The translations under genes and the position numbers were made by a program. Under the pieces are notes generated by a model that was not told where the DNA came from, did no database searches, and was given only the letters and a program-made list of their open reading frames with translations. 53,798 nucleotides of DNA from Macrostomum lignano (lineage: Eukaryota), in contig NIVC01001640.1 in the NCBI GenBank assembly GCA_002269645.1, forward strand, positions 1-53,798. Reading direction: 5' to 3'. Each line of letters starts with the position of its first letter. The first letter of the stretch is position 1. Positions 1 through 38,890 of this stretch are shown here, piece by piece.

Positions 1-158
1 ATTGTAGGATAGGGATATTGTAGGATAGGATGTTGTAGGATAAAGATATTGTAGGATAGGGATATTGTAGGATAGGGATATTGTAGGATAGGGATATTGT
101 AGGATTGGGATATTGTAGGATAAAGATATTGTAGGATAGGGATATTGTAGGATAGGGA
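1..158. repeat. 16-bp minisatellite (GGGATATTGTAGGATA)n, left part; resumes at 9618
   Basis: Tandem units read directly; the same array continues at 9618-9740 on the far side of the element. Confidence 0.95.
153..158. repeat. Left target-site duplication TAGGGA (partner 9618-9623)
   Basis: Left flank ends ...GATAGGGA and right flank restarts TAGGGATATTG, so 6 bp of the 16-bp satellite unit are duplicated. Confidence 0.9.
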
Positions 159-1090
159 ACTACTAAGCAACGGCAGATGCGCGATTTTGGAGGTGAGGTG
201 GGTGTCAACCCTCCTCGCCTCTCATTGGCTGGCGCCCCGATCACTAGGTGATCGATACCCGTATCGATATCGGCGCTCGGCGCGCGCGCGCGCAGGCGCG
301 TGGCGCCAAGCGCCGTCCAGCCGCAGGCGACCCTCCCCAGCCACCGGCGACCCTCCCCAGCCGCAGGCGCACCTACCGATATGTATGCCACCCTACCGAT
401 ATGTACCCCGATATGTACACCCTCCCGAGCCGCAGGCGCACCCTCCAGCCGTAGGCGCCCATCCGCAGACGCCCATGCCGCAGACGCCCATGCCGCAGAC
501 GCCCATGCCGCAGGCACCCGAGTGTACACTCTACCGAGCCGCAGGCACCCCGAGTGTACACTCTACCGAGCCGCAGCACCCGAGTGTACACTCTACCGAT
601 ATGTACACTCTACACTCTCCGATATGTAGTCAACGATATTAGGCTAGTGAAAACTACTTATAGTAGGTGAAATTGAGTATATTTACATAAAAATGTAGAT
701 AAAACATATTGGTAGGTGAATAATGACGCATATTGCATATTAAAATGTACATATTGGAGCATATGAGCAGCAAAAACACACAATGTAGGTGTATGGGCAG
801 AAATAGACAAAGCAGGTACTGTAGGCGCTACATAGGTGGAAATACACACAGCAGGTTTACAAAGTGTACTTTCGATACATATCGGATTAATGTATAAAGC
901 AGGTTTACAAGGCATGCATAAGGTGTAGTTGTATAATACAGGCACGCATGTATAATCAGATTATAGGCAAACGCCCAGGTGCAACAGACGCGTAAATAAT
1001 GTCGCACCGACTAAAGAGTAAATATTGTCTAACCCGCAGGTGCATAAATTTTAAACAAAAGCGGTTCGGGGAAATCCCAAAAGGGAGGTT
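159..1090 (+). repeat. Left terminal inverted repeat (~0.93 kb) with internal 15-bp and 32-bp tandem repeats
   Basis: Reverse complement of ~8675-9617. The track ORFs 658-945(-) and 8820-9107(+) translate identically. Confidence 0.95.
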
Positions 1091-1401
1091 TTAGCCGCCC
1101 GTTTTCGCCACCGCCGCCGCCGCCCTAACCCTCTTATAGGTACAATTGCGTTGAAAGTATTTCGGTCATTAGGTTGTAATGACCTCCATATTTTAGGTGG
1201 GTGGACTCGAGCCCGGGGCCAGCCCATTTCAGTTTTTTGGGCCGGCCCCTCTGCCAATTTCCTCCCTAGGAGCGAGCTATCAGAATTGGTCTTTTAACCC
1301 CCGTGTATACACACATAGAGGCCCCCAGCTAGCGCCCATTCTAACCTACCCAGTGTACAGTGTTGGGTTCCCCAAACCGCGTACAAAGAGAAATACCCTT
1401 A

Positions 1402-2415
1402 TCAGTCAATCTCCATACGCTCCCTCAGGGCTGTCTCGTACGCGGCCTCTTCCTCCACGCTCTCGAAGCAGTAGTCGGATGACTGGCAATGTGGAAATTA
1501 TAACAGTCAATGTAGATAGAATATATGCAAGGTATATGATTAGATGAGTTGTGTATATAATGTAATATCTTACCAAATCTAAATCGTCCTCCAGCCGCCA
1601 CAGACGTAGAGACGCTGTATAGCGCACCAACGAAAGGTGCTCCTCCCAGTTGGAGGGCCATGCGACGGGCTCATCCCACGCAGTTGGCCGCGCTCCCGGA
1701 CCGGCCAGGTACGCCTCAGAGTCGGGGCATACGAATTGCGCCCCATCAACCAGTCCTGGTGCAGAGTCTCAGCCTCCAACACCTCCCGTAGGCCGGCACC
1801 CCTCGCAACCAAAGTATCAAGAACCCGATTAAAGGCTCTGACAAAGGTAGCTTGGGAGGGCAGCCCGCCAGGATGCCGAGACCTCAGCCAGTCAATGTCC
1901 CCGCGGAAAAATGAGGCCACAATGCGAGGAAAGCGCTCACGAACCACGGCGATCTCCTCAGACATATCCTCGTCCTCGTCGTCGAAGAGAAGGAGCGTAG
2001 CGGCTGATGATATTGAGGCCCGGTGGGAGGTAGTTGAAGCAGCAGCAGAGACGGGCGTAGTAGAGGCGGCAGCAGCAGAGACGGGCGCAGCAGAGGCAGG
2101 GCCGGTTGTGGTCAGCTCCTCAACAGAGACGTCAAAGAGGGCGGCTGAGGCGGTAGTCAAATCGGAGGCAGTAGCAGCAGGGGCACCGTTCACAACCCCG
2201 CCGATAGCCAGCAGCGGGAGGTCAAAAACTTCAGACTCGGTGTCGCTATCATAGGACATAGCCCAAGCTAGATATTGATCAGCCTCCCAATTATCACTTC
2301 CGTTGTTTTCAGTGCCTAGGGGAACTATGTGTTCAGGGATATCCCCGTCGAGGCTGGTTAACTCTTCAGTCGGGCGATTATTATCCCAGAGGTTGGATAG
2401 AGCTCGGCGGGACAT
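1402..2415 (-). CDS. Element ORF1: acidic, Ala/Ser/Thr-rich protein of unknown function, ~307 aa; exons 2415-1574 and 1482-1402; one apparent 1-nt deletion near 1743
   Basis: ATG at 2415 downstream of a TATA-like TATATAA (~2488-2494, minus strand). Adding one G in the GGGG run gives AQFVCPDSEAYLAG...RLEDDLDL ending at a GTAAG donor (1573). A CCAG acceptor (1483) then gives SSDYCFESVEEEAAYETALRERMEID*. Exon 1 length 842+1 is divisible by 3. Confidence 0.65.
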
Positions 2416-2530
2416 GCTAGAATCAACAGAGAGTAAAGTATTAGAGCTGAGATAGGGTTTGACTCTCTGGAGAGGGGGAAACACTAATTATATAGACGGA
2501 TCGAGTGAGGCGGTGCGAACCAATAGGAAA

Positions 2531-3064
2531 CTAGCAGTCCCAACCCTCGTTAAACAGATTTTCCCAGGGTGGAGATTGGTAGGGTTTGAGACCCATGAGC
2601 TGAAGAACATCCACCTCAGTCCCGGCTACCGGAGGCGTGTCTGTCTTGACTCGCTTGGCTGGAGGGGGTGCCTCAGGTGCCGGCTTGAAGAGCTTGTCCA
2701 AACGGGCGGCAAACATCCGGCGCCACAGTTCAGGCGTGAATTCGATCGTGTAGCGCCAATTAAACTTTGGGTCCTGATTGAGCCAATTGCGCAGCAAACG
2801 GATCCTCCCTCGCGAAGCTTCAACTGCCTTGAAATTGCCCAACAGGACCCGCTTGTTCACGTGAAGGCGGGCAGCAGCCTCCAGGTCAGGGCGCGCAGCT
2901 TCGAGCTTCTTCCACTCTGGCTCGGCCAAGTAGATTGCAGGGAAGCCGTCCTTCCACACTCCGGCCTCGTTGGTGTAGAGACGCCGAATTTCAATCAAGT
3001 TGTGTTCAGTTTCAAATGTGGGCTTCCGCGCCACAAAGTTTTCGTATAGAGAGATAGAAGACAT
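2531..3064 (-). CDS. Tandem PC4/Sub1-like ssDNA-binding protein, 177 aa, with PPPAKRVK NLS-like motif
   Basis: LIEIRRLYTNEAGVWKDGFPAIYLAEPEWKKL resembles the PC4 core (LIDIREYW..GEMKPGRKGISL..EQW..L). A second copy reads RIRLLRNW...TIEFTPELWRRM. ATG with upstream TATA. Confidence 0.75.
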   Translation of the reverse strand: MSSISLYENFVARKPTFETEHNLIEIRRLYTNEAGVWKDGFPAIYLAEPEWKKLEAARPDLEAAARLHVNKRVLLGNFKAVEASRGRIRLLRNWLNQDPKFNWRYTIEFTPELWRRMFAARLDKLFKPAPEAPPPAKRVKTDTPPVAGTEVDVLQLMGLKPYQSPPWENLFNEGWDC

Positions 3065-3305
3065 GATTTAGCAGCAGCAGCAGCAGAGAGCTCTCTGACA
3101 GCCGTGCAGCGCCTTATATACCCCCGGTGGAGGGTGGGGTGGGTGATGATTTTGGGGTGATTTTTGATGATTTTGGTTGGTTTTTGGCGATTTATCCAAT
3201 AACAGGCGAGCTGAGCAGATTTTTTAGTATATATACAGACCCCCAGAGCCAGGGTAGAGAGATAAATCCTTCTCTCTCCGCTCTCTCACGCTCTCTGTTT
3301 GCAAA
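3065..3305. promoter_or_regulatory. Divergent promoter between the PC4-like and pPolB genes
   Basis: TATATAAG on the minus strand (~3113-3120), a G-rich box at 3129-3144, TATATATA on the plus strand (~3228-3235), and a CT-rich leader before the ATG at 3306. Confidence 0.55.
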
Positions 3306-6300
3306 ATGGCTAAACGCAGCGCCGCAGCAACTGCTTTCCTGGCTGACAAGAGGCAACGTCTTTATGGTAAGTTTTAATTAATTTCTGTCTAGACTGTAGT
3401 TGCTAGGGTGGGGGTAGGGGCTGAGCAGCAGCAGCAGCTGCAGGGTCTGTGGGACCGCAGAGTAAACAACAAAGACTGCTGCGACAGCTGCAGGGGTCTA
3501 GACTGGAGTTGCTAGGGTGGGGTGCTGCGGCAGGGTCTGTAACAGAGAGTTGCAGGGGAGGGCTAGACAAGTTTCAGCCGGGTGTGTGCTGATAAGAAAT
3601 TGCTGCTAGGGGGGTGTTGTCCAGACAGGCTGCAGCTGGGGTGCAAATTGCTGCGACAGAGAGTTGCAGGGGTGAGTAAACAAAGACTGGGGTGGGGGGG
3701 TTGTCTAGACAGGGAGGGGTGTGCTGATAAGAAATTGCTGCAAAAACAGACAGTTGCTAGGGTGCTGCGGCAGATAAGAAATTGCTGCAGAATCGTTGGG
3801 GCAGGCTAGACAAGTTACAGCCAGGTGGGGCAGAGAGTTGCTGGGACAGACTGGGGCTGCAGATAGGGCGCTACCCAGACAGGCTGCAGCTAGGTGCAAA
3901 TTGCTGCGACAGAGAGTTGCAGGGGTGAGTAAACAAAGACTGCTGCGACAGGCTGCAGCGGGGGTGCAGATAAGAAATTGCAGAGAGTTGCTGCGGGGAC
4001 AGCAGAGTAAACTCTGTTAAGAAATTGCTGGGGCTAGGGCGGGGAAACACGCTGGGGCCAGGAAAATGACAGATTCTTCTGGTTTTTTATCTCCTTGTGT
4101 TTTTTCAGACGCGTTTGTCCCGCCAACACAGCCGGAATCTGTTACCGGACCGGGTGAGTTATCCCGCCCCCCATTTCCCACACAGACCCTAGCTGACTCA
4201 CACTCCCCCATTCCCCCATGCAGGTTTTACGGCCAGGCTGGATAATCAGCGTGACCTGCCCAAGTTTAGGGCAAAGGGTGTCGAGTATGTGGTGCATATT
4301 ACCAACACCGAAGATTTGCGGGAGGTGTTTGCTGACATGCTCGAAGTTTTCAAGCAAGATTTGGCTGGTGATGACTTTATGGCCGCGAAATTCGAGAGCG
4401 ACAATATGCTCAAAGCGGCCCACACTCCCCCGGTGCGTGCAGCCCGCATGACGGCTGAATTGTTGTTTAAGCACATTGACAAGATTGTGCAGTCGATGCA
4501 CGTACTGTCGAGCAACTTTTCTATCCGTCTGCTAAAAGCCTGGGTACCTCGAGGTGGATGTGCTCTCGAGAACAAGCATCTAGAAGAGCGGCACGCCTTC
4601 TCCAAGCACTATGTCCGCATCACCAACTCGGACAAGAGATGCCTGCTGCGCGCTCTGGTCGTGGCCTGCGCCTACCTGCAATTCGTGGCCAAGTCCATCA
4701 CCAAGCGGTGTGGCACACAATCAAGGCCAATTCGCCCACGCAGACTAAGCTGGTGGCTGAGCTACAAATCGAAGCTGGCCTCTACACGGTAAGTTTCTAG
4801 TATTTTTCTGATAAGAATTTTTACACAGTCGTGGAATACTAAAATTTTCTGATAATAATTTTTACACAGTATCGTGGAATACTAAAAGATATATTTTCTG
4901 ATAAGATTTTTTACACAGTATCAGGGAATACTAAAAGAAATATTTTACCCTCCACACAGACTCTTCAAACCGTCTCGCAGGCTGGTCCTTTCGGGTTGGA
5001 TGCACTGCCCGAAGCGATCCGTGCCCTGAACCGGCTGCATCCGGGGCGCGATTTTGGTGTACGCGTGTACCGGCAGAGGAGGCCAACAGGTGCATCTTCA
5101 ACCTGCCTGGCACCGAGATTCTGCACCTGCACCTGGTCGAGCAGCACTTTAATGTGGTCACCAAGCTGCCTGCGTTTTTCGGCTCTGATCACTACTGCCC
5201 AAGTGCGAGATGGCCTACGACTGCGCCAACGCCGAAGCACAAGTGCGCTGATGCCTGCAGTACATGCAAGACTCCGGGCTCCAACTGTAAGGCAAACCGC
5301 GCATATGTAAGATGCCATGATTGCGGGCTAAATTGCTATAATGCTCAGTGCCTAGAAAATCACAAGCGCAAGAATAAGGCGGCAGATCGCGCTGTGATTC
5401 GGTCCACGTTTGCGGCACGTGTGGCTATCTAGAAGAACTAAAAGTAGGCCAGCCCCCTGAGCATCAGTGTGGTTATGCCAAGTGCCCAGTCTGCAAGCAG
5501 TACGACGAAACTGCCACCCACGAGTGCTTTGTCACCCCGCCCAAAGCCAAAGAGTCTAGCGCCCCGTATGTTTACTATGATTTCGAGACGTACGTGGACT
5601 CTGGCAAGCAGCACCGGGTACACTTGGTTACGGCTGCCACCTCCTGCGAGGCGTGTCCCAAACTCTTCCCCAGGCCCCGCTGCAGCGTGTGCGGGGGACT
5701 ACACAGCTCAGCCAATTGCATTGCGGGACGCGATTTGGCACTGGATTTCACGAGCTGTGTCTCGCACAATGACTGTGCCTGTGGGATGCGAGAGTTTGTA
5801 TCTGTCGGGCCGCACTCTATCGATGCATTTTACTGCTGGCTGACTAGTGTGTTCAAGCAGGGGGCAATTGCTATTGCGCACAATGGCTCTGCGTATGACG
5901 CATTCCTCCTGCTCGGCGCCCTACTCAACGGACTGGCCAAGAAGAAGCCGCAAGTGATCTTCCAGAACAGCCGCCTAATGTATATGAAGTGCGACAAGAT
6001 CACCTTCAAGGACAGCCTCAATTTCATCCCTATTGGTCTGGCGCAATTCCCAAAGGCGCTTGGTTTGGGCACCCAACTGACCAAAGGAGATTTCCCGCAC
6101 GTGTTTAACCAGCCTCAAAATTGGGGGTACGTCGGTCCCTACTGCTCAATTGATATGTATGGAGGAAAGAAGAATAAGCAGCATGACTCCATCGCCGACT
6201 GGCTGGCCAAGCAGGAGGGACAGGTGTTTAATTTTAATAAGGAGTACCTGGACTATTGCCTGCAGGACACGTTAATTTTGCGGGAAGGCTGCCTGAAATA

Positions 6301-8320
6301 TGCCCGCCTGATTAAGGACATTTGCGGACTGGACGCATTTGTTCAATCCAACACCATTGCGGGCTTGGCCATGTCGGTATTCACCACCAAGTTTATGGAG
6401 CCCAACACTCTTGGGGTGATTTCCCGCCGGTCCGATGTACAGTCGCACAAGGCGCGGTGCTGGCTGGCACATTTGAATGCAACCGAGTTTGGCGGCCGGT
6501 TGCGGACAGCGGACTCGGGCGGTGAGGCTTTCGCCATGGGTCGTAAGGTCGACGGCTTCGACCCAGAGACCAGGACAGTGCTGCAGTTTCATGGCTGCTT
6601 CTTCCATGGCTGTCCCAAGTGCTTCCCCAACGGCGACGTGCTGCACCCGCTCAAGAACCAGCCAATGCGGGCGATTTATGAGGAGACTGAGCGCTTCACC
6701 CGGTTGCTCTCCACTGCATACAATGTGCGTGTTCTGTGGGAGCACGACTATCAGGACGAGGGAGCGCCAGTCCAGCAGCCTATTCGCCTGGAGGATGCCC
6801 TGTTTGGCGGCCGTACCGAGGCTTTTGTCCCGCACGCCGAGGCCACCGAGACTGTAGAGCTGCGCTATCGGGATGTGGTAAGTTTGTACACTTGTACACA
6901 CACAGTTGACATGCGTTTGAGTTTATCTTATCCTTATCCCCTAGGTGTCGCTCTACCCGACTGTCAACAAGTTTGACAAGTACCCGGTCGGGCACCCGGT
7001 ACACCACCCCGAGCCTCATCTACTGGATGAGCTGCAGCTGGCCCGGTATTTTGGCATCGCCGAGGTGTCGATTCTGCCGCCAACCAATCTCCACATCCCG
7101 CTACTGCCCGCCAAGATTAACAAGAAGTTGGTTTTCGGCCTCTGCCGCGTCTGCATGGAGACCCAGTGCAGCAGCGAGTGTACACACACTGACGCTGAGA
7201 GAATGCTCCGCGGCACGTGGTCGACCCCAGAGCTCCACAAGGCCCTGCAGTTGGGTTACAAGCTGCAGTCAGTTCATGCCCTGGCCTATTGGACCGAGAC
7301 TCGCACGGGTCTGTTTGCAGATTATGTAAACACTTTTTTAAAGCTCAAAGCCGAGTCTAGCGGTTCGCCAGGGATGACTGAGGGCGCCAAGGCTGCCTAC
7401 ATGGCCAGCTTTTTCGAGCGCGAGGGCGTCCGGCTGGAAAAGGTGGAGGAGAATCCTGGCTTGCGCTTTGTGGCCAAGATTTTTCTAAACTCGTAAGTTT
7501 TTTCTACTTGCAGTGGGGGCCGTGTTTTTCTACTTACAAAAAAAAATTTATTTTTCCCTGCAGGCTCTGGGGCAAATTCTGCCAGCGCGACGACCTGACC
7601 TCCACAGAGATTGTGGACAGCTACGAGGCGTGGCTGCAGCGCCTGACCGACCCCTCGATCAAGGTCAAGTCGTGCGAGCCAATTGGGGAGAGCTTCATGA
7701 TGCTCGAGTACAAGCCCCGATTTGGCGGTGCTGGCGAGCGGGCGTTCAAGTACGCTAATGTGCCTATTGGCGTTTTCACCACCTCCCACGCCCGGCTGCG
7801 ACTCTACGAGGCTCTGGAGGGCCTAGGAACCCGAGTCATTTACGCCGATACTGATTCGTAAGTAATTTTTTCACTGTCTCTGTCTCTCTTTCTCCCCTTA
7901 ACACTTTATTCTCCTCCTTCTCCCAGGGTTGTATACCGCTGCTCCCCGGGCGAGTACGAGCCTCCGGGCGGTTCGAGTTTGGGGCAGTGGACTGACGAGG
8001 TACCTGCTGGCTGCCGCATGGTACAGTTCACCACGGGAGGCCCCAAGCTCTACCGGTACGTGGTGGAGAAGCCCGACAGGTCGCTGTACTCGGTGCTCAA
8101 GTGCAAGGGCATCAGAGTCACCCCCGAGATTTCCGAGCGCGAGGACGAGCTGCAGGAAATTCTGCGCCACGGGGGCTCTGTCCGCCTGCCCCAGGCCCAG
8201 TTCAGGCGCGATAAGGCTAGCTGTACAATAAGGACCCTCGAGATGGACAAGACTTTCCAGCGCGTAATGACTAAGAGAGTGTATGGGGCCGCTAGCCGCC
8301 CGTATGGCTTTCGGGAGTGA
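3306..8320 (+). CDS. pPolB: Protein-primed family B DNA polymerase (Polinton type), ~1270 aa, 7 exons: 3306-3366, 4109-4153, 4224-4788, 4981(or 4960)-6877, 6945-7492, 7564-7857, 7927-8320; five small apparent indels at ~4706, 5075, 5200, 5234, 5385
   Basis: ExoI YYDFET, ExoII AHNGSAYD, ExoIII YCLQD; Pol A RDV|VSLYP, Pol B KIFLNS|LWGKF, Pol C YADTDS|; GGPKLY, KCKG and C-terminal RPYGF; N-terminal RGG, DKRCLLRALVVA, HFNVVTKLPAFFG and CxxC clusters. All introns are GT-AG with consistent phases. Confidence 0.92.
3385..4040. repeat. Degenerate repeats in pPolB intron 1 (GATAAGAAATTGCTGC, GAGAGTTGCAGGGG modules)
   Basis: Multiple shuffled copies visible. Confidence 0.7.
4800..4945. repeat. About three tandem copies of a ~45-50-bp unit in pPolB intron 3
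   Basis: TTTTCTGATAAGAATTTTTACACAGT...GGAATACTAAAA repeated. Confidence 0.8.
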
Positions 8321-8674
8321 GTGAAAGATAAGGATCTGTCTTTGCACGCCTGGGATTCCCCTATGTGCCCACTTGGGATCCCTTGACTCGTGGGGATGAA
8401 AATGGTTTTACGCCCGCACTGTACTTAGGGGTCCTTACTCATTTGGCACCTCCACTGTACATTGAGCGGGATCCCCTCAAGTGTTAAAACTCCCATTTGA
8501 CACCTATTCCCTCGGGGCGGTTTGTGGCCCAGCGGTCCGCCTCTTGGAGTAGAACTCCTGACATGAACTTGCTGCGCTGATTAGCGTACTGATAGCGCAA
8601 TCGAAATACGTCCATTTTTCTAGCCCACTTGTGGGTTTAATTGTGTTGAAAGTATATCGGGTCATTAGGCCGTG

Positions 8675-9617
8675 AACCCCCCTTTTGGGATTTCCCCGAA
8701 CCGCTTTTGGTTAAAATTTATGCACCTGCGGGTTAGACAATATTTACTCTTTAGTCGGTGCGACATTATTTACGCGTCTGTTGCACCTGGGCGTTTGCCT
8801 ATAATCTGATTATACATGCGTGCCTGTATTATACAACTACACCTTATGCATGCCTTGTAAACCTGCTTTATACATTAATCCGATATGTATCGAAAGTACA
8901 CTTTGTAAACCTGCTGTGTGTATTTCCACCTATGTAGCGCCTACAGTACCTGCTTTGTCTATTTCTGCCCATACACCTACATTGTGTGTTTTTGCTGCTC
9001 ATATGCTCCAATATGTACATTTTAATATGCAATATGCGTCATTATTCACCTACCAATATGTTTTATCTACATTTTTATGTAAATATACTCAATTTCACCT
9101 ACTATAAGTAGTTTTCACTAGCCTAATATCGTTGACTACATATCGGGAGAGTGGTAGAGTGTACATATCGGTAGAGTGTACACTCGGGGTGCCTGCGGCT
9201 CGGTAGAGTGTACACTCGGGGTGCCTGCGGCTCGGTAGAGTGTACACTCGGGGTGCCTGCGGCATGGGCGTCTGCGGCATGGGCGTCTGCGGCATGGGCG
9301 TCTGCGGCATGGGCGCCTACGGCTCGGGAGGGTGCGCCTGCGGCTCGGGAGGGTGTACATATCGGGGTACATATCGGTAGGGTGGGCATACATATCGGTA
9401 GGTGCGCCTGCGGCTGGGGAGGGTCGCCGGTGGCTGGGGAGGGTCGCCTGCGGCTGGACGGCGCTTGGCGCCACGCGCCTGCGGCGCGCGCGCGCCGAGC
9501 GCCGATATCGATACGGGTATCGATCACCTAGTGATCGGGGCGCCAGCCAATGAGAGGCGAGGAGGGTTGACACCCACCTCACCTCCAAAATCGCGCCATC
9601 TGCCGTTGCTTAGTAGT
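8675..9617 (-). repeat. Right terminal inverted repeat (~0.94 kb)
   Basis: Reverse complement of 159-1090, apart from a few small indels and substitutions. Confidence 0.95.
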
Positions 9618-9623
9618 TAGGGA
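9618..9623. repeat. Right target-site duplication TAGGGA
   Basis: Immediately follows the terminal AGTAGT; identical to 153-158. Confidence 0.9.
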
Positions 9624-9745: not shown

Positions 9746-9782
9746 TATGATGAAATTTCATAGCTCATCTCACGCTCCGCAG

Positions 9783-12525
9783 TGGTGCAACAACACCTGT
9801 TGCAACCCCAGCACCTGCAAATTGGCCAGCGGGGCCGCCTGCGCCTCAGGCCAGTGCTGCAACCTCACCACCTGCAGCCTGAAGTCGCAGGGCGTCGTAT
9901 GTCGGCCAAGGAAGCGAGCCTGCGACCTTGAGGAGTACTGTAACGGGACCAGCGAATGGTGCCCGGAATTTGATGACTTCATGATTGACGGATCAGAGTG
10001 CCTCAACGGACAGGTGAGGAGATATTGGGACCAATGACCAAATGACTCAATGACCCACTGACCCATTGACCCAATGACCCATTGACCCAATGACCCAATG
10101 ACCCAATGACCCATTGACCCATTGACCCATTGACTCACTGTTGATCCAATGACCCATTGACTCAATCATTCCTTAACCCTATGGTTAATCAGTAAACAAA
10201 TCTGTGACCCTCTGAATCATGGGCCTTTGACTCAAGAACCGCAGTTGACCCACTGACCCTCAAGGCCTACTGCTTCAACGGCCGGTGCTCGGACCGCAAC
10301 ACCCGCTGCTCCATGATGTTCAACGCCTCGGATTTTCGGGCCGCCCCGGCCTTTTATTCCGAGGCCACCACTCAGGCATCGCAGCTGGGCTACTGCGACT
10401 ACAGCATGACCGGGATCAGCCCGCTCGCGTACAACTACACCGGCTGCAGTCACGAGTGAGCTAGGGATCGAGATGGGGAGGTGGTAAATCCCAAATTCAT
10501 CAATTCAAAATCCCAAAATCATCCATCCTAAACCCCAGAATCATCAATCCCAAACCACTGAATCATCAATCCCAAACCCCAGAATCATCAATCCCAAACC
10601 ACTGAATCATCAATCCCAAACCCCAGAATCATCAATTCCAAACCCCAGAATCATCAATCCCAAACCCCAAAATCATCAATCCCAAACCCCCAGAATCATC
10701 AATCTGAAACCCAAAATCATCTATCCCAAACCCCAGAATCATCAATCCCAAACCCCAGAATCATCAATCCGAAACCCCAGAATCATCAATCCGAAACCCC
10801 AGAATCATCAATCCGAAACCCCAGAATCATCAATTCCAAACCCCAGAATCATCAATCCGAAACCCCAGAATCATCAATCCCAAACCCCAGAATCATCAAT
10901 CCGAAACCCCAGAATCATCAATCCCAAACCACTGAATCATCAATCCCAAACCCGAAAATCATCAATCCCAAACCCCAGAATCATCAATCCCAAACCCCAG
11001 AATCATCAATCCCAAACCCCTAGAATCATCAATCCCAAACCCCAAATTTATCAATCCCAAACCCCAGAATCATCAATCCGAAACCCCAGAATCATCAATC
11101 CCAAACCCCAGAATCATCAATCCCAAACCCCAGAATCATCAATCCCAAACCCCAGAATCATCAATCCCAAACCCCAGAATCATCAATCCCAAACCCCAGA
11201 ATCATCAATCCCAATTGGTATATTATTTTTATTAATCCTATTCGTCTATCCTAAATCCCATTTTATTAATCCTTAATTCAACTTCTCCGTGAAATGACCA
11301 ACTCAAACTGCTCCGTCCCCCCAGAAACCAACGCTGCGGATTGCTGTATTGCACGTCAAATATCGCCTCAGGCGACCCAATTCCGGTGTGGCAAGGCGCC
11401 AACCTCGCCGACGCCAAGGTGTTCGAGGGCAGCGTGAACTCCACTAACGTGATCGCCGCTTTTATGCAGCTGGACTTGCGCAGCTCCGGCTACCGGGACC
11501 CTGGGCTCGTTCCCAATGGCGCCGAATGCGGAACCGGACGGGTGGGTGCTCCGGTATTTAATAGAGTGCACTTATTAAATTATTCGCACTTAGCCGGGTT
11601 GCTTCGGGGCTGAAATATTTCAGGCGTGAATCACATGAGCCCCAGGACCGATTTTCGTGCCCTTTCTCGGGGGGGGGGTCAGCGGGAAGGGCTTGACTGA
11701 GTTCTGATATTTCAATTCCCAACTCGCAACTATTTTCCAGATGTGCGTCGACTCCCAGTGCGTGGCCATCAACACCACGCGCTGCCCGAACTGCAATGGC
11801 AACGGCTGGTGCACGCAGAGCGGCCAGTGCTTCTGCAGTCCGGGCTTCGCTCCGCCGAGCTGCCTGCAGGCTGGAACGGGCGGCTCCATGACCAACCATC
11901 CGCCTTGTGAGTTTTTTACCTGCTAGTGTATTGACTGGATATTTGTTCTCTGCCGCGAGTTTACTCAACAGCGGCGGGTTTGAAAATTGTTTTAATTGCA
12001 GTTCCTGCGACTTCGACATCAACAACAACAACCACGCCAACAACAACCACGCCAACAACAACCACGCCAACAACAACCACTCCAACAACGCTCGCTCCGA
12101 CAAAAACCACTCCAACAACGACCACTCCAACAACAACCACTCCAACAACAACCACTCCAACAACAACCACCCCCACAACAACCACTCCAACAACAACCAC
12201 GCCAACAACAACCACCCCCACAACAACCACTCCAACAACAACCACTCCAACAACAACCACTCCAACAACAACCACTCCAACAACAACCACGCCAACAACA
12301 ACCACGCCAACAACAACCTCGCCAACAACAACCACTCCAACAACAACCACTCCAACAACAACCACTCCAACGACAACCACTCCGACGATAACGACGCCAA
12401 CAACTCTGACAACAACAACGAACAACGTCATCTGGCCTCGAGAAGCTTCCCAACGCAGATGTAGCCTAGCGCTGTCCCTGCTGTTGCCTTCACTCACTGT
12501 ACTCCTAGCAGCTTGTTTTTCATAA
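9783..12525 (+). CDS. 3' portion of an ADAM-family gene (disintegrin, Cys-rich, EGF-like, Thr/Pro mucin stalk, hydrophobic C-terminus); exons 9783-10013, 10265-10455, 11325-11541, 11741-11906, 12002-12525; 5' exons lie upstream of the window
   Basis: CCNPSTCKL...CASGQCC...CRPRKRACDLEEYCNGTSEWCP (disintegrin); AYCFNGRC, RCGLLYC, DPGLVPNGAECGTGR|MC (ADAM Cys-rich); CNGNGWCTQSGQCFCSPGFAPPSC (EGF). Splice phases are consistent. Confidence 0.9.
10028..10170. repeat. 9-bp minisatellite (TGACCCAAT/TGACCCATT)
   Basis: Intronic tandem units. Confidence 0.85.
10485..11215. repeat. 22-bp minisatellite (CCCAAACCCCAGAATCATCAAT)n
   Basis: About 33 intronic tandem units. Confidence 0.95.
12020..12420 (+). 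repeat. Coding 15-bp repeat encoding (TTTTP)n mucin stalk
   Basis: ACAACAACCAC(T/G)CCA units in frame with the last ADAM exon. Confidence 0.85.
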
Positions 12526-13355: not shown

Positions 13356-15275
13356 TCAAAGTTCACAGTTGGTAGCAACTTTTTTAAACGCGTGCCTCAA
13401 ACAGTTCTGTATGCAACAGGTGGTGGCACCGCAGTGACCATCGGTTTTGCCGCACTCGGTCCCGAACCGGGGCAGCGCTCTGCTCAGCAGCACAGGCTTC
13501 TGCCTCCTAGTCCGAAAGCGTCTGCGCAGCAGAAAGCCCAGCGTGGCGTACTGCTGCGACCACACAGTTCCCACTATGTCTCGGCGGAGTTCGAAGTTCT
13601 CGTGCAGCACGCTGATCTGCTGGGTCAGTAGGGCGATGCCGAAGTTCAGGATGAACACGGCCACGAGCAGGAACACTATGACCTGCGGCCACAGCGCAAC
13701 GTAGTCGCCGATGCCGGGAAAGCTAGCAAAGCTGAATGCGTAGCGGAAAGACCGGCCAAGGTACTCTATGACGCAGACCAGTGAGTAGTTGGAGCACTCG
13801 ATAAAAGGCTGGCTGAGAAGCAACGTTGAGCAAACCAGAGTTACTGGCACAACAGTTAAGAGCACCAGCTTCATGGACACACTCATGCAAAAAAGTAAGT
13901 TTAGGAACACTTGGTAGTGACCGGCCATGTTGGATACAAAGAAAAGTTCCAACATGCAAGTAAAGTAGTAGTTCAAGGCTACTGCGACTTGAAGACGAGT
14001 CGCTTCGACAAACAGGCGTCCATCTTGCTTAAAGTAGCTGCCGGAATCGCTGAAGATGTAAAGCTCCATGAAAATCATACAAACCTGCAGCATGTTGAAC
14101 AGAATCCCAAAGAATTCCATCACCAGACAACCTCGCATCGAGACGGCATCTGCAAGCCAGGTTAGAAACTTGGACCGAGTTCGCATTACCTGGAGCTGAA
14201 AGTGCGCATCAACAACGCGGGCTACGATCCAAGAGAGCCAGATTAGCAAGAAGAAGATTTGGAACGCGACTCGCACGTAGAACACGTATTTGAAAGCGGC
14301 GACAACAGACGGTGAGATGCCCTGCAGGTAGGACTGGTTCGAGTTCCCGCCGCTCGGAATGAACACCTGCACGCTGGAGTTGAATGTGCCCGCCGTGAAA
14401 ATTCGAACTGTCATCGTGCTCAACAGTGAAAAGTAAATCAAAATGTAGATGAACAGACTTATGAAGGCCACCGGCAAGGTCTGTTTCAGGTGGGCAACGC
14501 TGAGAAAATAGGCCTGCGCAACCGGGCTGTGATAGAAACAGATCAACTTCGCTGGAATAACTCCCCCAACCGCAGTCTGCGAAGACTTCAGAAACTGCAG
14601 GAACGGTGACTTGAGAAAGCGGTCCCCGTCGCTGGAGTAGAGGCTGAGGTCGACCTCCTCGACCAGCAGGCTCGGGTCGGTCGGATGCTCCCGCTCTCTG
14701 ATCAGGTATCCGGGCGCATTGGCGAACGCTGTCGCCAGGTGAAAGCAGTCCCTGGCCGCCGCGTACTCCAGCGGTGTCAGGCAGTCGGCCGTCGGCTCCT
14801 CGCTCAGCAGCCGAGCGCACGGGTCCGGATGCCGGCGCGACAGTCTGACGAAGAACCGAGCGAGCTGCGCCTCGTCAGCGGAGCAGGCCTGACTCGAGCA
14901 GCAAAAGTCCACCAGGAGGAACAGGGCGCAGCGGACGCGGTCCCACAGACCGAGGCTGTCGACCAGCTCGACGGCTCGGCTGGCCAGCTCGTCGTCCCGA
15001 CTGAGCAGCACGAGGCAGAACGGCGACAGCTTTGGACAGTCGTTTGCGTTGCCATCGGCGACCAGGTAGTCACAGAACTTGCATCCACTGTGGCGGAGCA
15101 GCTCAGCATTTTGCTGCAGCGCGTCGGCAAAACGGGAGAACTGCCCCGCGTAGAGCAGCCCCATGGCTTTGCGTGCGGTGCGGGCTGAATCCGACTCGTG
15201 CGCATCTTCCAATTGTTTCTGCTCGCCATCAGCGGCACCGGGGCCGCACCGGGGAATCAGTTTTTTTAGCTTCAT
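13356..15275 (-). CDS. Intronless divergent TRP (TRPV-like) cation channel, 639 aa
   Basis: Ankyrin-like LTPLEYAAARDCFHLA; about six hydrophobic segments; S6/TRP-helix-like VFILNFGIALLTQQI...VWSQQYATLGFLL (cf. TRPV LLNMLIALM...W..QRAITIL). Confidence 0.7.
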   Translation of the reverse strand: MKLKKLIPRCGPGAADGEQKQLEDAHESDSARTARKAMGLLYAGQFSRFADALQQNAELLRHSGCKFCDYLVADGNANDCPKLSPFCLVLLSRDDELASRAVELVDSLGLWDRVRCALFLLVDFCCSSQACSADEAQLARFFVRLSRRHPDPCARLLSEEPTADCLTPLEYAAARDCFHLATAFANAPGYLIREREHPTDPSLLVEEVDLSLYSSDGDRFLKSPFLQFLKSSQTAVGGVIPAKLICFYHSPVAQAYFLSVAHLKQTLPVAFISLFIYILIYFSLLSTMTVRIFTAGTFNSSVQVFIPSGGNSNQSYLQGISPSVVAAFKYVFYVRVAFQIFFLLIWLSWIVARVVDAHFQLQVMRTRSKFLTWLADAVSMRGCLVMEFFGILFNMLQVCMIFMELYIFSDSGSYFKQDGRLFVEATRLQVAVALNYYFTCMLELFFVSNMAGHYQVFLNLLFCMSVSMKLVLLTVVPVTLVCSTLLLSQPFIECSNYSLVCVIEYLGRSFRYAFSFASFPGIGDYVALWPQVIVFLLVAVFILNFGIALLTQQISVLHENFELRRDIVGTVWSQQYATLGFLLRRRFRTRRQKPVLLSRALPRFGTECGKTDGHCGATTCCIQNCLRHAFKKVATNCEL

Positions 15276-15849
15276 CTGCTGTTCTGTAATCCGCTGTTCC
15301 GTATGAGCTGCGATTCGATTCTGAAAAAGCTCTGCGACTTGATAGCCAGTCGGATTGAGCTTAGATTAAATACTGACAAGAGGGTGTTTGCTCAGCCTAC
15401 CTGTAATCTACCTGCATTGATATGAGCCAGGTATGGACGGTCGCATTTCCGTTTACCCGGGGGCACAGCTAAGTATGCTCCGGACAGTTGCTACTCTTGG
15501 ACAAATTCAACCTGAGTCTAGTGTAATTCAAACACTGGGCTTGCTGCGGGGCAAATTAATTGTGGACATTTCTAATCGCTGTATTGGCAAACCTGCATCC
15601 GAAACCGAAACCGTGGCAGCATCAATACCTGTCATCTCTGGAACTGCATCTTCCTGTCTCTGTCATCCAATCTGACAGATTGGCAAACTGAAACTGCGAC
15701 TGTACCTCGTATTTAATCAATTCTGATAGGATTTTATAGGATTTTCTCATAGCGTCGAATGGCTGGCTGAAGAGCAGTGCAGCTTGTCAGTGAATGAATC
15801 GGTGAGCACTCATTTAGCATTAGCTAGACAGCCATATTGGCGTCAGTTG

Positions 15850-16210
15850 TGAGGTGACGGTTGATTGGTTTGTGAGCTGGGTAACTGTGGGGGGGGGTTG
15901 TTTGCTTAACTTCGCTTGGTCACTTTGTTTGCAACTTGCGATCTGCGTGAAATAGCTTAAATATTGTAAATATTGAATTTAACTTATGCACTGGCACTGT
16001 AAGTGGAGAGGGTAAAAATGGTAGAGACTTAACGGGCGGGGCAATGGCTAGTGCAGTGATGCACATTGAACAGAGTAGAGTACGCATAGAGTACACAATG
16101 ATTTAGTGAGTACACGCAGATCGCAGTGGCAAACAAAGTGACTAAGCGAAGTTAAGCAAACAAAGCCCTCCACAGTTACCCAACTCACAAACCAATCAAC
16201 CGTCACCTCA
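15850..16210. mobile_element. Foldback/MITE-like element with ~100-bp imperfect inverted arms (15850-15949 and 16113-16210)
   Basis: TGAGGTGACGGTTGATTGGTTTGTGAG... is matched by ...CTCACAAACCAATCAACCGTCACCTCA; no clear TSD. Confidence 0.6.
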
Positions 16211-17342: not shown

Positions 17343-17791
17343 GCACAAATACTAGAATAACTAGATGGGCTACTTAGCACATTTGCGTGTAAGCTACTTC
17401 AGTTCAGTAGTAAGTTTAACAGAAGCATTTTAATTTAAATGTTTAAAGCCAAGACTCATTAATTGGCTCTTACCCCCAGCTTAAACCCTTCAACCGCGCC
17501 TTTCCACACTACGGCTTTCTACGCTTGCCCCGCTCCAATTTTTATTGCCTCTCTCGGAATTCCAGACAAAAGCAGCCATGTACATTTGAGCGGACTGGCC
17601 TATGTACATTACTGCTGAACCAATTAGCAAGTTGTTTACGCCTGCTTCTAAACTTATCGAAGTCATTTCAGCTGCCTTTATTTTTATAAATTAGCTTATG
17701 TATTCTTCTTTGCTACTGAAATGAAAGTAGAAAGCTGCTTTACTAAGTATATATGCGCGAGTGGCCCATCTAGTTAATTTAGTATCTGTGC
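17343..17791. mobile_element. Possible MITE with ~32-bp imperfect TIRs
   Basis: GCACAAATACTAGAATAACTAGATGGGCTACT versus the reverse complement of 17760-17791, GCACAGATACTAAATTAACTAGATGGGCCACT. Confidence 0.45.
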
Positions 17792-21500: not shown

Positions 21501-24500
21501 TAGTTGATACAGAGCACTCTTCGTCGTAGGCCAGGCTGCACGAGAATGTACCATCGGCACCTCTCAGGTTGCTGGACTGGCGACAGCTGTGCAGTCGGAT
21601 TCGCTCTGGTTAAAATGCATGCAGCGCCTTGATTGTTGGATCAAATAGTGATGAAATTCGGGACGAAATCCCCAACTGCCGCCAATCTCCTCTTCTAAGC
21701 TGCAGGAAATTCTTCTGAACCAAAAATCGAAGGGATACCCGTGCTCTCACTATGACCTTCACAGGTCACGGTTGCTTTGTCAGGCAATTTCCACAAAGCG
21801 ACCGCCGGAGCAAACTCTGCCCCTTTTGCAACCTCGAGAACGAGGAAGTTAAGCACTTCGTCTGCCACTGCCCGGTCTTCAAACGAGACCGGCTCCACCA
21901 CTTCGGGATCCAACCCGTCCCCTAGACGACGCTTGCCGGCCAGAGAACTTCCCACGGCTCATCCGGTTTCTCCGGGCCACCAGACGAGCCTCTGTCCTCT
22001 GTCCAAGCAAAGTCAAAGCGATGCAAATTGAAAGAGGATGTGAACTTAAGAGTCAAAATGGAGCCCGAAACATTTGGTTCCGATTTCTCTATTCATTTGG
22101 AGCTAAATACGAGTAGCTCCCGCCGTGCCTAAAACCGACCACTTTAGAATTTGGGGATCTCTATGGGGGAGAAATGGGATAAATGGGGATTTCACGATAT
22201 AAATGTGCGAAAATGATGTTTACCACCCTTCGTCTCGAAACGTCGGCTCAACGTCCACAACCCCCTTTGACGTTATTTACGTCTCCATCAAGGTGGGGAA
22301 ACACAATGAGAGCTGGGGTGGGGGATAACATAAAAAAGTATTAAGAAGAGCGTTTATCATGGTCATCTCGTCATTTAAGCATTTGAAGCTCCAAATGAAG
22401 GGATTGGCTTAGAGAAACCGAGACCCAATGCTTCAGGCTCCATTCTATAGAGCTTTAAGTTCACATGAAAACCCCATTTATCCCATTTCTCCCCATAGAG
22501 ATTCCCAAATGCTAAAACGATCGGTTTTAGGCATAACGGGAGCTACGAGGGTTTGGCTCCAAATAAAAGGACTTGGCGTAGAGAAATCGGGACCCAATGT
22601 TTCGGGCTCCATTTTGACTCTTGAGTTCACATCCTCTTTAAGCGTTCACCAATATTACCATGCGGTGACGTGCGTTAACAGTAGCACTCAAAATTCCGCT
22701 CGGTATGCAAGCCTCAGTCTTTATTCCAAATCACAAGCGAGGCAGATAAAGGTGTCTTGGTGCCACTTTAGAGTGAGCAAAAATTGCACTTAAAAAGGTC
22801 AACAATTTGAAGTTCAATAGGAATACCAATATTACTGATAGAAGGCACTCTGAACGCTGCAAAAGGCTTGAAAAGTATTGTTATAAAATCTTCGGCATAA
22901 AACTTTCGAATCTTACCTCTAACCACCAAGGCAATGTACTTGTTGACAGTGGTGAAGTTGCACAGATTTTTTCCCATTCTAGCCAGCGGAAACGAACAAG
23001 TCAGGGACTTGTTGTCGAGGTGTTCGCTTTTGAACAGGATCAACACGTCGGTGACATCCAGCAAGTTGGACCCGAGGTCGGGCAGTTTGATGGATAGCTG
23101 GTCTGCGTGAGGACGAGTTTAAAGCAAAAATATGAACTTTGAATGTTACTGACATTCAACTGTTACTGACAGTCAATTGTCACTGACAGTCAATTGTCAC
23201 TGGCAGTCAATTGTCACTGGCAGTCAATAGTCACTGACAGTCAATTGTCACTGACAGTCAATTGTCACTGACAGTCAATTGTCACTGGCAGTCAATTGTC
23301 ACTGAAATCAATTGACACTGTGACTAGAGTCGGTGACAATTTAAGCAAAGCCCAATGAAGTTTTAACAAGAGTTCATTAACTCACCGTTTCCAGCCGGGT
23401 CGGGCTTCGAACCCAGATCCTCTCCGTTGTACAACAGTTCGAGGTAGAAATTCCCCGACACCACCTGCTCCCCGGTGAGTTCCCTGAGCGGCGCCGACCA
23501 GCTCAGCCACTTGTACAGGCCGTAGACTTTGAAGTCCAGGATGCGCGGGGGCTTTCTGTGATCGGCGACTCCTGCTGGAAAGGAGGTGCGGGCGGGTTTT
23601 AGAAAACAACTTGCAGTCAGAGTCATTAAATACACAGGTGACAGTACCCCCGACAATCAGGGTCATTAAATACACGGGTGAGAGTACCCTTGACTGGGGG
23701 CCGTAGCCCAGCGGTAGCGCAGCTGCTCTGGTGTGCCAGCGACCCAGGCTCGATTCCAAGTGCAGTCACATTAATTTGGGGCTGAATTGGAATCTTGGAG
23801 AGCTTGGCTCTGCTCGTGAAATTAACGGCCTTGAGAGCCAACCCCCCAAGGCGCAGTGAAGTGTACATGCCTAACGATAGTATAAAGTTAGGGCCACTGT
23901 ACACTCCTGTGTGAGTGTGTGCCTGCGTACGTATCCGCGCGCTTGTATGCCTGCTCAGGGGAGTCGGCGGAATGGGCAGTAATGCCTCTCGCCGGTTGTG
24001 TGCCTATGTCGCTTAAAGTGCGCCAGGGTGCATGCATACAACCCCCTGCCTCTAATAAATAAAAATACCCTTGACCATCAGGGTCATTAAATACACAGTT
24101 GACAGTACGCTTGACAATCAGGGTCATTAAATACACAGGTGACAATACCCCCGACAATCAGGGTCATTAAATACACAGGTGACAATACCCCCGACAATCA
24201 GGATCATTAAATACACAGGTGGGAACATTCCTGCCTTTCAGGGTCACTCAGGAACAGGTGACAGTACCTCTGACAATTAAATGGGTCTCGCAGACACAGG
24301 TGACAGTACCTCGCCTCCGACTTGCAGGGTGGAAAGGATCTTTCCTTTTTACAATTATTACGTTATAAAAGCAGAGATACAAATTAAGAAGAGCTCCTCA
24401 TGGCTTACCTGGAGCATCGCCCAAGTCACCTTCTCCGGGCTTCGCCTGCAGGCCAATTGCCAAATAAACAACCAGAAGAAGCAGAACGAGCGGCGTCAGA

Positions 24501-25645: not shown

Positions 25646-34391
<8,746 letters not shown>

Positions 34392-36176: not shown

Positions 36177-38890
36177 ATGCGTAAGTGTCATAGATAATAA
36201 TTTATGGCTTAATTTTCACAGTTTGCATCTGTGTAACATAACTAGCTGCAACCGAGTCACTTGAACTAAAATCAAATCAAGCAGTGGCACGTTTCCTGCG
36301 GCAGAATCTCAGCAAAAAAATAACTAATGAACTTTGCTTCAAGTTACCAAGACAGAGAACCTGCTTCAAAGTATTTTTTCACTTGAAATAATTAGCGGCC
36401 AATTAGATAGCAAAAAATCGCCGGAAAGTACTGCAGTAGCTGCTTGAAACGTTTTCAAATGAAGCGGCATTCTAGAAAATTTAGTTTGAACTGCAAAACT
36501 CTCGATTTACGTTTAGATGGCTGGGAATTTTCGTTCACCTGTGTCATTTCTTTACACTCAAAACCAATCTAAACTAAAGAGATTCTCAGGGCATTAAAAG
36601 TACATTGATTTGGGGTTGTGACTCTGAAGGAGTGCGTGGATTCGATACGTAGATTCGTTTCGGTGCTACTCTAGGATATAGACTGAGACAAAGATCTAGG
36701 GTAATTAAAAGACTAACGGGCATGCAAATTGGGTTTGAGAAGTTTCTGATATTTTAACTCATTGCAGCCAACGCCGCTGCCACAGCTGCGCCGCTTCTGG
36801 CCCTGCTGACCATCTGCGCGTTGCATCAGCAGCCGTCCCAGGCCCTGGTTTGGACGCAGGCCTTCAGCTCGGAGTTGGCCACTCGCCAATTCTTTGGTTT
36901 TCGGCTGTGCAACGCGCCTCCATCGAAGAGCGTTGTGTTAGAGGCGGTAGATGCTTACAACATCACGGACGCGAACACGCCAGGTTTAGTCTACTCGGTG
37001 AAGTCAAGAATTAAACTATACGTCATCTTCTGCAGTGGAAGTTCAGTAGATGCCACTCAAAATTTTTTAGTAGCGGGAATGCCGACTGTGATTCAATGGC
37101 GAGACATCTGCGACAACACGATCAACCTGGCTATTTACCTGCAGTCGTCAGTTACACCAGAGTTACAGAACACTTTGCAGCCCTGCAACTATGAAGTACA
37201 GCATTCTGGAATCACTGAGCAGCAGGTGACCGCGTGGGTGCTGGTGACCTACACAGCCAACTGGGACCCCGTGTGGGTCAATCGAACTCTACCAGAGCCC
37301 AGAGACAGCAACACCACAGCATCTGTAATGCTCAGTAGCAGCACGGATCCACTGTCGAATGCCACTTGGTATCGCGTTCAAGTGAACTCTGGCCTGCTCG
37401 AAGATTCCATGTCGCCAAATCAACGCGTACAGGCGGTTTTGACGTCCATTTCAACGGCTCCGGGGCAAAGATGGTGGCTGCTTATCTGCAGTGTTCTCAA
37501 TGCTACGGAGAACTTGCTAGTGAAAATCTCTGACAACAATGAAACTGTGGATATGCATATGGACTGTGGGAGTCTCGTACAGCCTACCCTGGTGCTGGGT
37601 GCTCCAGCCAACAGTTCCAACGAAACTCTCCCAGTCCCGGCCGTCCAAAGCTCCTCCGGTGGCTACTGGGGCCCCACACTGCAGCGACTTCTGACTGAGC
37701 AGACGTTTGGGGGCCTTAACTTCTGCAACGCATCCGAAGCTGACGGGGCTGTCCTCGTGAATGCGGTCGACGAAATCGTGATCGGGTTGGACTCCGGCGC
37801 CACTACACCTACCGTAGTCAGAGCTACCCTTGACCTTTACGTGGCACCCTGCGACAGCAGTTCTAGCCTGGCACTGGGAGACGCCTTTTTAAAAGTTTTC
37901 CTCCAGGGCGACGCGAATTGGACGGAGGTTTGCGCGGACTCCGCCAACCCGACTGTCACTGTGAACTTGGTCAACAGAACCGCATTGCGGTTCAACCCGT
38001 GCCCGGCAGCCAATGCCACAGCAGAGGAATCTGCTGCAAAGCTGGCCTGGTGCATTCTGGCTTTGAACTCGTCCGATTCAGAGCTGCTGTGGACCAACCG
38101 AGACACCACTAGCCTGGTCGAGCCGTCGGCTGCCAGCGTGTCCTTTCGGATACTCGGGGACGCCAGCAACATGGTGCTGCAATGGGGCAACGTTTTAGTG
38201 AACGGAATTTCAACTGGGGACAATGCCGACCGACTGGTCCAGGTGTTCCAATCAGTTAGTACCTCTTACTGGCCAGTTGTTTGCCAGCTTTTAAATCCTT
38301 CGACTGGGAGCTTCATGCTTATCGAGATTCAGAGCGGTGAAATCAGTAGTAAAAAAATCAACCTCTATGCAAACTGCAGCTTTGAAAGTGAACTCTCCAG
38401 CACTCCACCGCCTACTCAACCTCCAACAGCGGTAGAAACCACTGCTGCTTCGACATCTGCACCATCATCAACGACTCCGTCAGCTACTTCAACGACTAAA
38501 ACGACGACGACTACACCAACAACCACGACTACCATGCCAACAACCACGACGACCACGTCAACAACCACGACAACCACGTCAACAAGCACGACGACAACTA
38601 CGCCGATGACCACAACAACTTCAACAAGTACATCAACTGCAACCACAACTACACCAACTACAACTACAGAGGCTTCATCAGCGTCACAACAATCAGAGAG
38701 CACCTCTACCACAGTTTCTGTACCTGTCACACTCTCTGCCGAGCAGAGGAAAGATAAGAAAGACATCGAGGATGCTGAAGGAAGACTGGATTTCGGAACT
38801 CAGACAGCCGTGTTGGTCTTTGCTCTGGTAATTATGGCGTTACTGTCCACAGTTGGTATTTGCAAGCTGGTGGCACCCAGGTCTATTTAA
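36177..38890 (+). CDS. Mucin-like type I membrane glycoprotein, ~708 aa; exons 36177-36180 and 36768-38890
   Basis: TATA-like TATAAG at ~36143; ATGC|GTAAGT micro-exon; signal peptide MPNAAATAAPLLALLTICALHQQPSQA; many NxS/T sites; Thr-rich stalk; TM TAVLVFALVIMALLSTVGIC; short tail. Confidence 0.8.

Follow-up and report, generated by a model that had tools for sequence, protein, structure and literature searches.

A replication-only, Polinton-like element family in Macrostomum lignano and its candidate capsid-bearing partners

We analyzed a 53,798-nucleotide stretch of the Macrostomum lignano genome (contig NIVC01001640.1; hereafter, the window). At positions 159..9617 it carries an element that encodes a protein-primed DNA polymerase (pPolB), a PC4-like protein, and a third gene. 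We found that this element belongs to a family that has inserted repeatedly with 6-bp duplications of the target site (TSDs) without an integrase in cis. It is very likely that the family, taken by itself, is replication only and mobilized in trans, and the element is probably packaged in trans as well. Our preferred explanation, to which we give a probability of roughly 0.6, is that a Polinton has been divided into pieces that integrate separately, with the window element as its replication segment and a reciprocal partner that has the same ends.

The element starts with ACTACTAAGC at 159 and terminates with GCTTAGTAGT at 9617. Alignment placed its terminal inverted repeats (TIRs) at 159..1090 (+ strand) and 8675..9617 (− strand), and the pair is 98.6% identical across 943 columns. 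A sequence-only reading of the window had claimed a length of 9,459 bp, TIRs of about 0.93 kb, an exact 6-bp TSD, and three genes, all of which we confirmed on the window copy. The left TSD copy, TAGGGA (153..158, +), lies within a 16-bp host satellite, and the right copy is at 9618..9623 (+). Taking out the element and one TAGGGA gives back the satellite register, which cannot be recovered unless six bases are treated as duplicated. Thus, the duplication is real. All 30 of the 30 ends compared have the (ACT)2 terminus. In the left TIR this invariant end is followed by a variable cassette (~165-186) and a conserved core (~187-235); farther inward there are short GC-rich repeats and then an AT-richer part. 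The cassette, of about 22 bases, recurs in different combinations among family copies. The core occurs at 250 sites in the genome, 100 of which were listed, and the end-pairing results below rest on those listed. TIR length is 0.93 kb in the window copy and 1.2 to 1.4 kb in a subtype without the third gene. The gaps adjoining the TIRs measure about 310 bp and 355 bp. One noncoding stretch of 47 bp (8453..8499, no strand assigned) is exactly equal to part of the gene-less palindrome arm described below and is a possible cis signal. A search of Rfam with the element and the palindrome arm gave no match.

An exact scan of the genome with the back-translated polymerase motif gave 87 sites, which the matched letters split into 60 sites of family A, the family of the window element, and 27 sites of its sister, family B; the two share about 65% amino acid identity. 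Assemblies of M. lignano have been reported to be redundant (PMC5730564). Therefore, these site counts include duplicated regions and are inflated. Among 18 copies examined, 12 were complete and 6 were represented at one end only; all 12 complete copies are flanked by a 6-bp TSD, each of them different. Listed ends bracket 32 of the 60 family-A sites, and these units measure 8.4 to 11.3 kb in 31 cases and 40.6 kb in one. Synonymous versus nonsynonymous variants numbered 59 versus 13 in exon 4 of pPolB (pN/pS, the ratio of nonsynonymous to synonymous polymorphism, 0.065), 24 versus 7 in exon 5 (0.09), and 31 versus 6 in exon 7; the PC4-like gene had 8 versus 7 (0.27). Family A is thus a size-stable, multicopy family under purifying selection. 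The suggestion that the element is not obviously a random internal-deletion derivative agrees with these site, TSD, and size counts; far from a single copy collinear with a full-length Polinton, we found many, and a full-length parent that carries this polymerase was not encountered. Another copy, at C135:296891-306596, has a purine-rich, GATAG-containing target site that resembles that of the window copy.

In a quick tree (48/52 rows), families A and B formed one long-branched group (Shimodaira-Hasegawa-like approximate likelihood ratio test [SH-aLRT], 100), whose position among Polinton-type polymerases was not settled. All 31 of the 31 polymerase matches labeled as M. lignano were of the A/B type or fusions thereof. 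From other sources, a weak search that requires shared words recovered 47 proteins at 24 to 36% identity; these nearest outside relatives include coral, spider, and nematode polymerases, and one of them, P0056, is fused in its gene model to a packaging ATPase. The metagenomic relatives L033, L035, and L038 carry the polymerase in the usual linked Polinton layout. A search of the viral contig collection gave no relative of the family-B polymerase.

The integrase and virion genes are elsewhere in the genome. Using the integrase, ATPase, capsid, minor capsid, and protease of L035, a full metagenomic Polinton, as queries (tblastn, E ≤ 0.05), we found no match in the window, as the sequence-only reading had claimed for the element. 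The genome gave at least 111 listed matches to integrase, 73 to ATPase, 82 to the PF21738 capsid, and 94 to the L035-type capsid. Candidates scored were 95 of 175 for polymerase, 111 of 2,538 for integrase, 94 of 370 and 126 of 195 for capsid, and 150 of 189 for ATPase, and the counts that follow refer to listed matches. At distances up to 10 kb from a family-A or family-B polymerase, there were 0 of 111 integrase, 0 of 73 ATPase, and 0 of 82 PF21738 capsid matches and 1 of 94 L035-type capsid matches, or 1 of 360 overall; for integrase the count was still 0 of 111 within 20 kb. The single linked match is a nested case, in which the capsid gene is interrupted by a family-A insertion. Counted from the polymerase, an integrase or virion match lay within 15 kb of 1 of 60 family-A sites and 0 of 27 family-B sites. 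As a control for linkage, 35 of 111 integrase and 25 of 94 capsid matches lay within 10 kb of an ATPase match. A blank result in the genome with Pox_A32 (PF04665) was set aside as insensitivity, since the Polinton ATPase query gave 73 matches. A weak search for long gene models fused to capsid found none.

Two side observations concern these loci. At L025:400-1539 and L017:1700-2835, a family-A element lies inside the capsid gene of another Polinton-like element; the protease gene comes after that capsid gene, and what may be an ordinary end is located 340 bp beyond. At C2692:31598-45618, integrase and ATPase matches form a tandem array whose 9,207-bp period is near the size of the polymerase element.

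Among the ends listed, many ACTACT-end pairs enclose no polymerase motif. Two of these, on C4 (378061-392019; 13,959 bp) and C2210 (6031-19931; 13,901 bp), enclose a capsid match with a 443-aa frame, and on C355 a capsid match lies at the same 1,867-bp offset as in C2210. Over their first 30 nt, C2210 and C355 are identical to the polymerase-bearing C986 and C491. In the 17 polymerase-less pairs without a listed palindrome arm (151 kb), about 0.02 capsid matches would be expected; the probability of two or more is 1.7e-4, provided that elements do not cluster. Integrase matches lie inward of ACTACT ends on C251, C2722, and C106. Polymerase-less 9-kb elements were also considered as the capsid partner and were dropped, because many proved to be palindromes.

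These palindromes are a further product with the same ends. On C428 there is a recombinant copy in which the polymerase makes up one half and a 4.2-kb stretch with no recognizable genes the other. The latter stretch is present as two inverted arms on 16 contigs at 95 to 100% identity (best 37 of 229 candidates), with a center of 424 to 427 bp that is the same on 12 contigs. The same ends bracket 11 elements for which one arm or both were listed; these are 8.4 to 9.4 kb long, the size of the polymerase element. The arm gave no blastx match to the collected proteins. The palindromes resemble fold-back products of strand-displacement replication and copy-back defective genomes. That gene-less palindromes have spread fits a polymerase and an integrase supplied in trans, and that they keep the size of the polymerase element hints at packaging. 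Moreover, 4 of the 12 complete copies have ends of two different subtypes and yet a clean TSD, which is consistent with recombination before insertion. At C4851:20754-25894 the arm-to-polymerase junction is identical to that of C428, so this copy either duplicates the C428 recombinant or represents its insertion at a second place. Inverted integrase, capsid, or polymerase pairs, 5 to 11 kb apart, are present on C3189, C2301, C592, C1313, C3431, and C157; thus, forms of the fold-back type may be frequent across several families.

We propose the following cycle for a split Polinton. From the spliced mRNA, a terminal protein-vOTU-polymerase would be made and would prime at the (ACT)2 ends, in keeping with pPolB biology (bioRxiv 10.1101/2024.03.18.585575). 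The linear DNA would be copied by protein-primed strand displacement, and the PC4-like protein would coat the displaced strand. Integrase and capsid would come in trans from the polymerase-less elements of about 14 kb with the same ends, as their coordinates suggest, and these elements would in turn use the family-A polymerase. The gene-less 9-kb palindromes, again with the same ends, would ride on both kinds of element. All Polintons of the flatworm may be split in this way. In its fullest form the proposal describes a segmented, integrating animal double-stranded DNA virus, in which a Polinton lineage would long ago have divided into a spliced polymerase segment and a same-ended capsid and integrase segment, accompanied by palindromic defective satellites of matching size. 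We advance this form tentatively, at slightly less than even odds.

Several observations weigh against the split. The element is known from integrated copies and contigs alone, with neither free DNA nor particles observed, and the capsid-bearing and palindromic elements are known from coordinates only, apart from one palindrome arm known by sequence. Same-ended elements with integrase, capsid, and ATPase but no polymerase had been predicted; the capsid part of this prediction held, by coordinates, on C4 and C2210, but no integrase or ATPase match is listed inside either. Only 3 of 15 listed copies of the capsid type with the 443-aa frame are near a listed end, C355 may be a duplicate of C2210, and a distant third polymerase may reside on the capsid elements. 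Matches lie inward of the ends on eight contigs versus outward on three, which is not significant alone (p = 0.11). The partly sequenced capsid element around C4072 seems to end in ...ACTACT-3', the usual form, so at least one capsid family is without these ends. The 9,207-bp tandem unit on C2692 contains about 4.3 kb that is unexplained. Finally, all matches are among listed candidates, and the lists are partial.

Some of these points would suit a one-way arrangement, in which the element is a satellite or an integrating linear plasmid that borrows the integrase, and perhaps the capsids, of Polinton-like elements that have a replicase of their own, as yet unseen, and draw no benefit from the satellite. 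The genome does hold several integrase, ATPase, and capsid families, one capsid family apparently has ordinary ends, most listed capsid matches have no listed ACTACT end nearby, and 80 of the 175 polymerase candidates are unscored. However, 176 capsid matches are listed versus at most those 80, and in the two 13.9-kb same-ended elements the capsid is of one and the same type, with no A/B motif present. The host-labeled polymerase matches, all of the A/B type or fusions, point the same way, if weakly, while the 47 outside proteins at 24 to 36% identity were found. We regard one-way borrowing as unlikely. 

It is quite improbable that the copies are internal-deletion derivatives of a full-length Polinton with the same polymerase that is unassembled or was recently lost. 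Deletions do happen, as the third gene has been deleted from one subtype with a 39-bp remnant left behind; 28 of the 60 family-A sites are not bracketed by listed ends, and there is the one bracketed unit of 40.6 kb. Against this stand the narrow size range of the other 31 bracketed copies, the strong purifying selection among short copies, and six conserved introns, where intact vertebrate Mavericks have intronless genes (PMC8097293). In addition, the sister family, 65% alike, is likewise apart from virion genes (0/27), which points to an old split. An assembly artifact, with a collapsed or chimeric larger element and palindromes that are fold-back errors of long reads, is scarcely credible. 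Although two copies at one site do not agree in their scattered single-base gaps, and the redundancy of the assemblies (PMC5730564) inflates the counts, such errors would not account for 12 different TSDs, for the same palindrome center on 12 contigs, or for the presence of at least half of the element words in 20 public runs from 7 studies.

The pPolB gene occupies 5.0 kb of the + strand, from 3306 (start inferred) to 8320, in seven exons separated by six GT-AG introns. Thus, while the sequence-only reading counted the genes correctly, its description of them as compact does not apply to the polymerase; it had nothing on the introns, on the optional gene 3, on the sister family, or on the palindromes. 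Exon 1, with the inferred start ATG, is 3306..3366; it is followed by exon 2 (4109..4153), exon 3 (4224..4788), exon 4 (4960..6877), exon 5 (6945..7492), exon 6 (7564..7857), and exon 7, which includes the stop codon (7927..8320). Introns 1 to 5 (3367-4108, 4154-4223, 4789-4959, 6878-6944, and 7493-7563) are skipped exactly at GT..AG by contigs in 3, 3, 4, 3, and 4 of 4 runs, respectively. Splicing of intron 6 (7858-7926) was inferred from contig piece lengths (X1 record 4 and X4 record 18), and exon 6 also agrees with gene models; exon 7 follows from frame and contig evidence. The four runs, from four studies, were guessed to be RNA, and none is recorded as such. Since the introns are present in every DNA copy examined, the joined contigs are most likely transcripts. 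The splice sites are conserved in 17 of 17 copies covering introns 1 to 3 and in 18 of 18 covering introns 4 to 6.

PF03175 scored above the cutoff on exon 4 (E = 5.9e-15) and exon 5 (E = 4.6e-13), and polymerase motifs A, B, and C run across splice joints. Intron 4 splits motif A (D-V/V-S-L-Y-P), intron 5 lies within the Ser codon of motif B (K-I-F-L-N-S/L-W-G), and intron 6 lies within the Ser codon of motif C (Y-A-D-T-D-S/V-V-Y). By a rough, post hoc estimate, the chance of one intron in each of the three motifs is 2e-5, or 8e-4 if three exonuclease motifs are counted as targets as well. The inteins of archaeal PolB occupy three conserved active-site positions, the third at YGD/TDS (PMC549080). 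Intron 6 is eight bases from the point equivalent to this third site. The remaining two intein sites presumably lie in motifs A and B. Two family-B gene models likewise break after YRDV, so intron 4 may predate the split between A and B. Besides a putative terminal-protein region, exon 3 holds the Cys motif of a vOTU domain that is likewise putative, and exon 4 holds the putative vOTU His motif, a Cys-rich region, the exonuclease motifs, and the first half of motif A; the candidate catalytic Cys and His motifs of the N-terminal OTU-like domain, like these labels, were assigned by eye. The exonuclease motifs are retained, and no helicase was seen. Compared with other copies and the transcript-like contigs, the window gene has frame breaks near 4494-4501, 4706, 5072, 5200, and 5380. 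Some breaks differ between the window copy and the copy that shares its flank, pointing to possible sequence errors. The break near 5380 is also present in a copy at a different site and is either inherited or a systematic error.

The PC4-like gene (2531..3064, −) is divergent from pPolB, and the spacer between them (3065..3305, no strand assigned) contains TATA- and CCAAT-like words by eye and is a putative two-way promoter. The gene encodes a 177-aa protein that falls below the Pfam cutoff when single sequences are used. However, a four-sequence profile matched PC4 structures (4usg, E = 4.8e-07), with P0160 excluded from the alignment as a low-complexity chance match. The model reached a predicted local distance difference test (pLDDT) score of 73.6 when folded with three relatives, versus 36 when folded alone. 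With Foldseek, the best match of the model was PC4 itself (1pcf; E = 4.6e-03, probability 1.00), and the best viral match was MOSUB of a lancelet adintovirus (E = 2.4e-04). The gene that the sequence-only reading called a single-stranded-DNA-binding protein is therefore PC4/Sub1-like by profile and fold, and single-stranded DNA binding is predicted. The environmental PC4-like proteins P0159, P0161, and P0162, on short contigs and 30 to 38% identical, may indicate that other hosts have related elements.

Gene 3 has one intron. Exon 1 is at 1574..2415 (−), and exon 2 (1402..1482, −) is supported by the joint 1482-1574 (CT..AC), observed in 2 of 4 runs, and by the UniRef models P0156 and P0157. 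The N-terminal half is acidic and Ala/Ser/Thr rich, the C-terminal region is of no known family, and neither Pfam nor the Atlas gave a usable match. The gene is optional: among 17 copies with the PC4-like gene, 8 are without it. In six of eight other copies that carry it, it is one unspliced frame of 336 codons, and the window copy has a frame break near 1728.

The insertion is just upstream of a disintegrin exon (PF00200), and the public gene model P0006 joins reprolysin, the window polymerase, and downstream exons. Thus, the element most likely lies within an intron of a host ADAM gene, whose type of metalloprotease exons (disintegrin and cysteine rich) is present at 9747-11905. Elsewhere in the window, an intronless frame of 669 codons (13356-15365, −) with several hydrophobic stretches and no Pfam match is possibly a channel-like membrane protein, judged by eye. 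A second intronless frame, of 710 codons (36758-38890, +), has a Thr-rich stalk and a C-terminal hydrophobic stretch; the part from 37079 was scanned and had no Pfam match. A partial rhodopsin-family G-protein-coupled receptor (PF00001) is at 25646-26041 (+). Short inverted-repeat pairs, 0.4 to 0.6 kb across, at 15850-16210, 17343-17791, and 22031-22639 are possibly miniature inverted-repeat transposable elements.

Polintons, or Mavericks, are defined by a polymerase and an integrase on one molecule. The window element shares with them a pPolB of PF03175, TIRs within the 100-to-1500-bp range used as a criterion, a 6-bp TSD, and trinucleotide-repeat ends, but it has no integrase, ATPase, protease, or capsid in cis. 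It is 9 kb long in a family of 8.4 to 11.3 kb, compared with 13 to 25 kb for Polintons (bioRxiv 10.1101/2023.08.22.554363). Intact vertebrate Mavericks have intronless genes and 5'-(AGT)2//(ACT)2-3' ends (PMC8097293), whereas the window element has six introns and 5'-(ACT)2//(AGT)2-3'; family A lacks the (AGT)2 or (AG)3 5' ends used to recognize vertebrate elements. Alpha PolB adintoviruses have an OTU and pfam03175 layout that the window polymerase may share (here, OTU by motif only) and a PC4-like gene, MOSUB, but their hexon, penton, protease, ATPase, and integrase genes are all found on a single molecule (PMC8502044).

Bidnaviruses and the Drosophila Vesanto virus are segmented, as the proposed split Polinton would be, with the polymerase on its own segment and shared segment termini, and for Vesanto virus optional or satellite segments have been proposed (PMC8363768, PMC8502044). 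However, they have single-stranded DNA and parvovirus-type proteins, while here the candidate partner has a Polinton-type capsid and integration is with a 6-bp TSD (PMC8502044, PMC8363768). Neither parvovirus NS1 nor a single jelly-roll capsid was found among the scanned open reading frames of the element; the genome was not searched for them. The linear plasmids of Kluyveromyces lactis offer another likeness, a capsid-less pPolB replicon of about 9 kb (the killer plasmid) that needs a larger, 13-kb helper, but they are cytosolic and form no particles, while the window element integrates (PMC13348850). Moreover, the spliceosomal-type introns imply nuclear transcription, unlike that of the cytosolic yeast plasmids. 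Transpovirons and Tlr1 likewise have derived Polinton replicases on reduced or helper-dependent elements, but theirs are polymerase-helicase fusions without an exonuclease, while the window polymerase keeps its exonuclease motifs (bioRxiv 10.1101/2024.03.18.585575). In the literature covered, which mostly left out subscription journals and Repbase reports, we found no description of this element, of a segmented Polinton, or of a Polinton polymerase with spliceosomal introns; repeat tables in genome papers might be relevant here.

If the split form is true, the replication and morphogenesis modules of Polintons can separate and yet cooperate, and a path leads from Polintons both to segmented viruses and to plasmids that have no capsid. 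Such elements would escape searches in which several Polinton genes must lie within 20 kb of sequence (bioRxiv 10.1101/2023.08.22.554363). Polinton virions have not yet been observed, according to PMC8097293. Because this family is young, spliced, and resident in a laboratory flatworm, a direct look for free DNA and particles is feasible.

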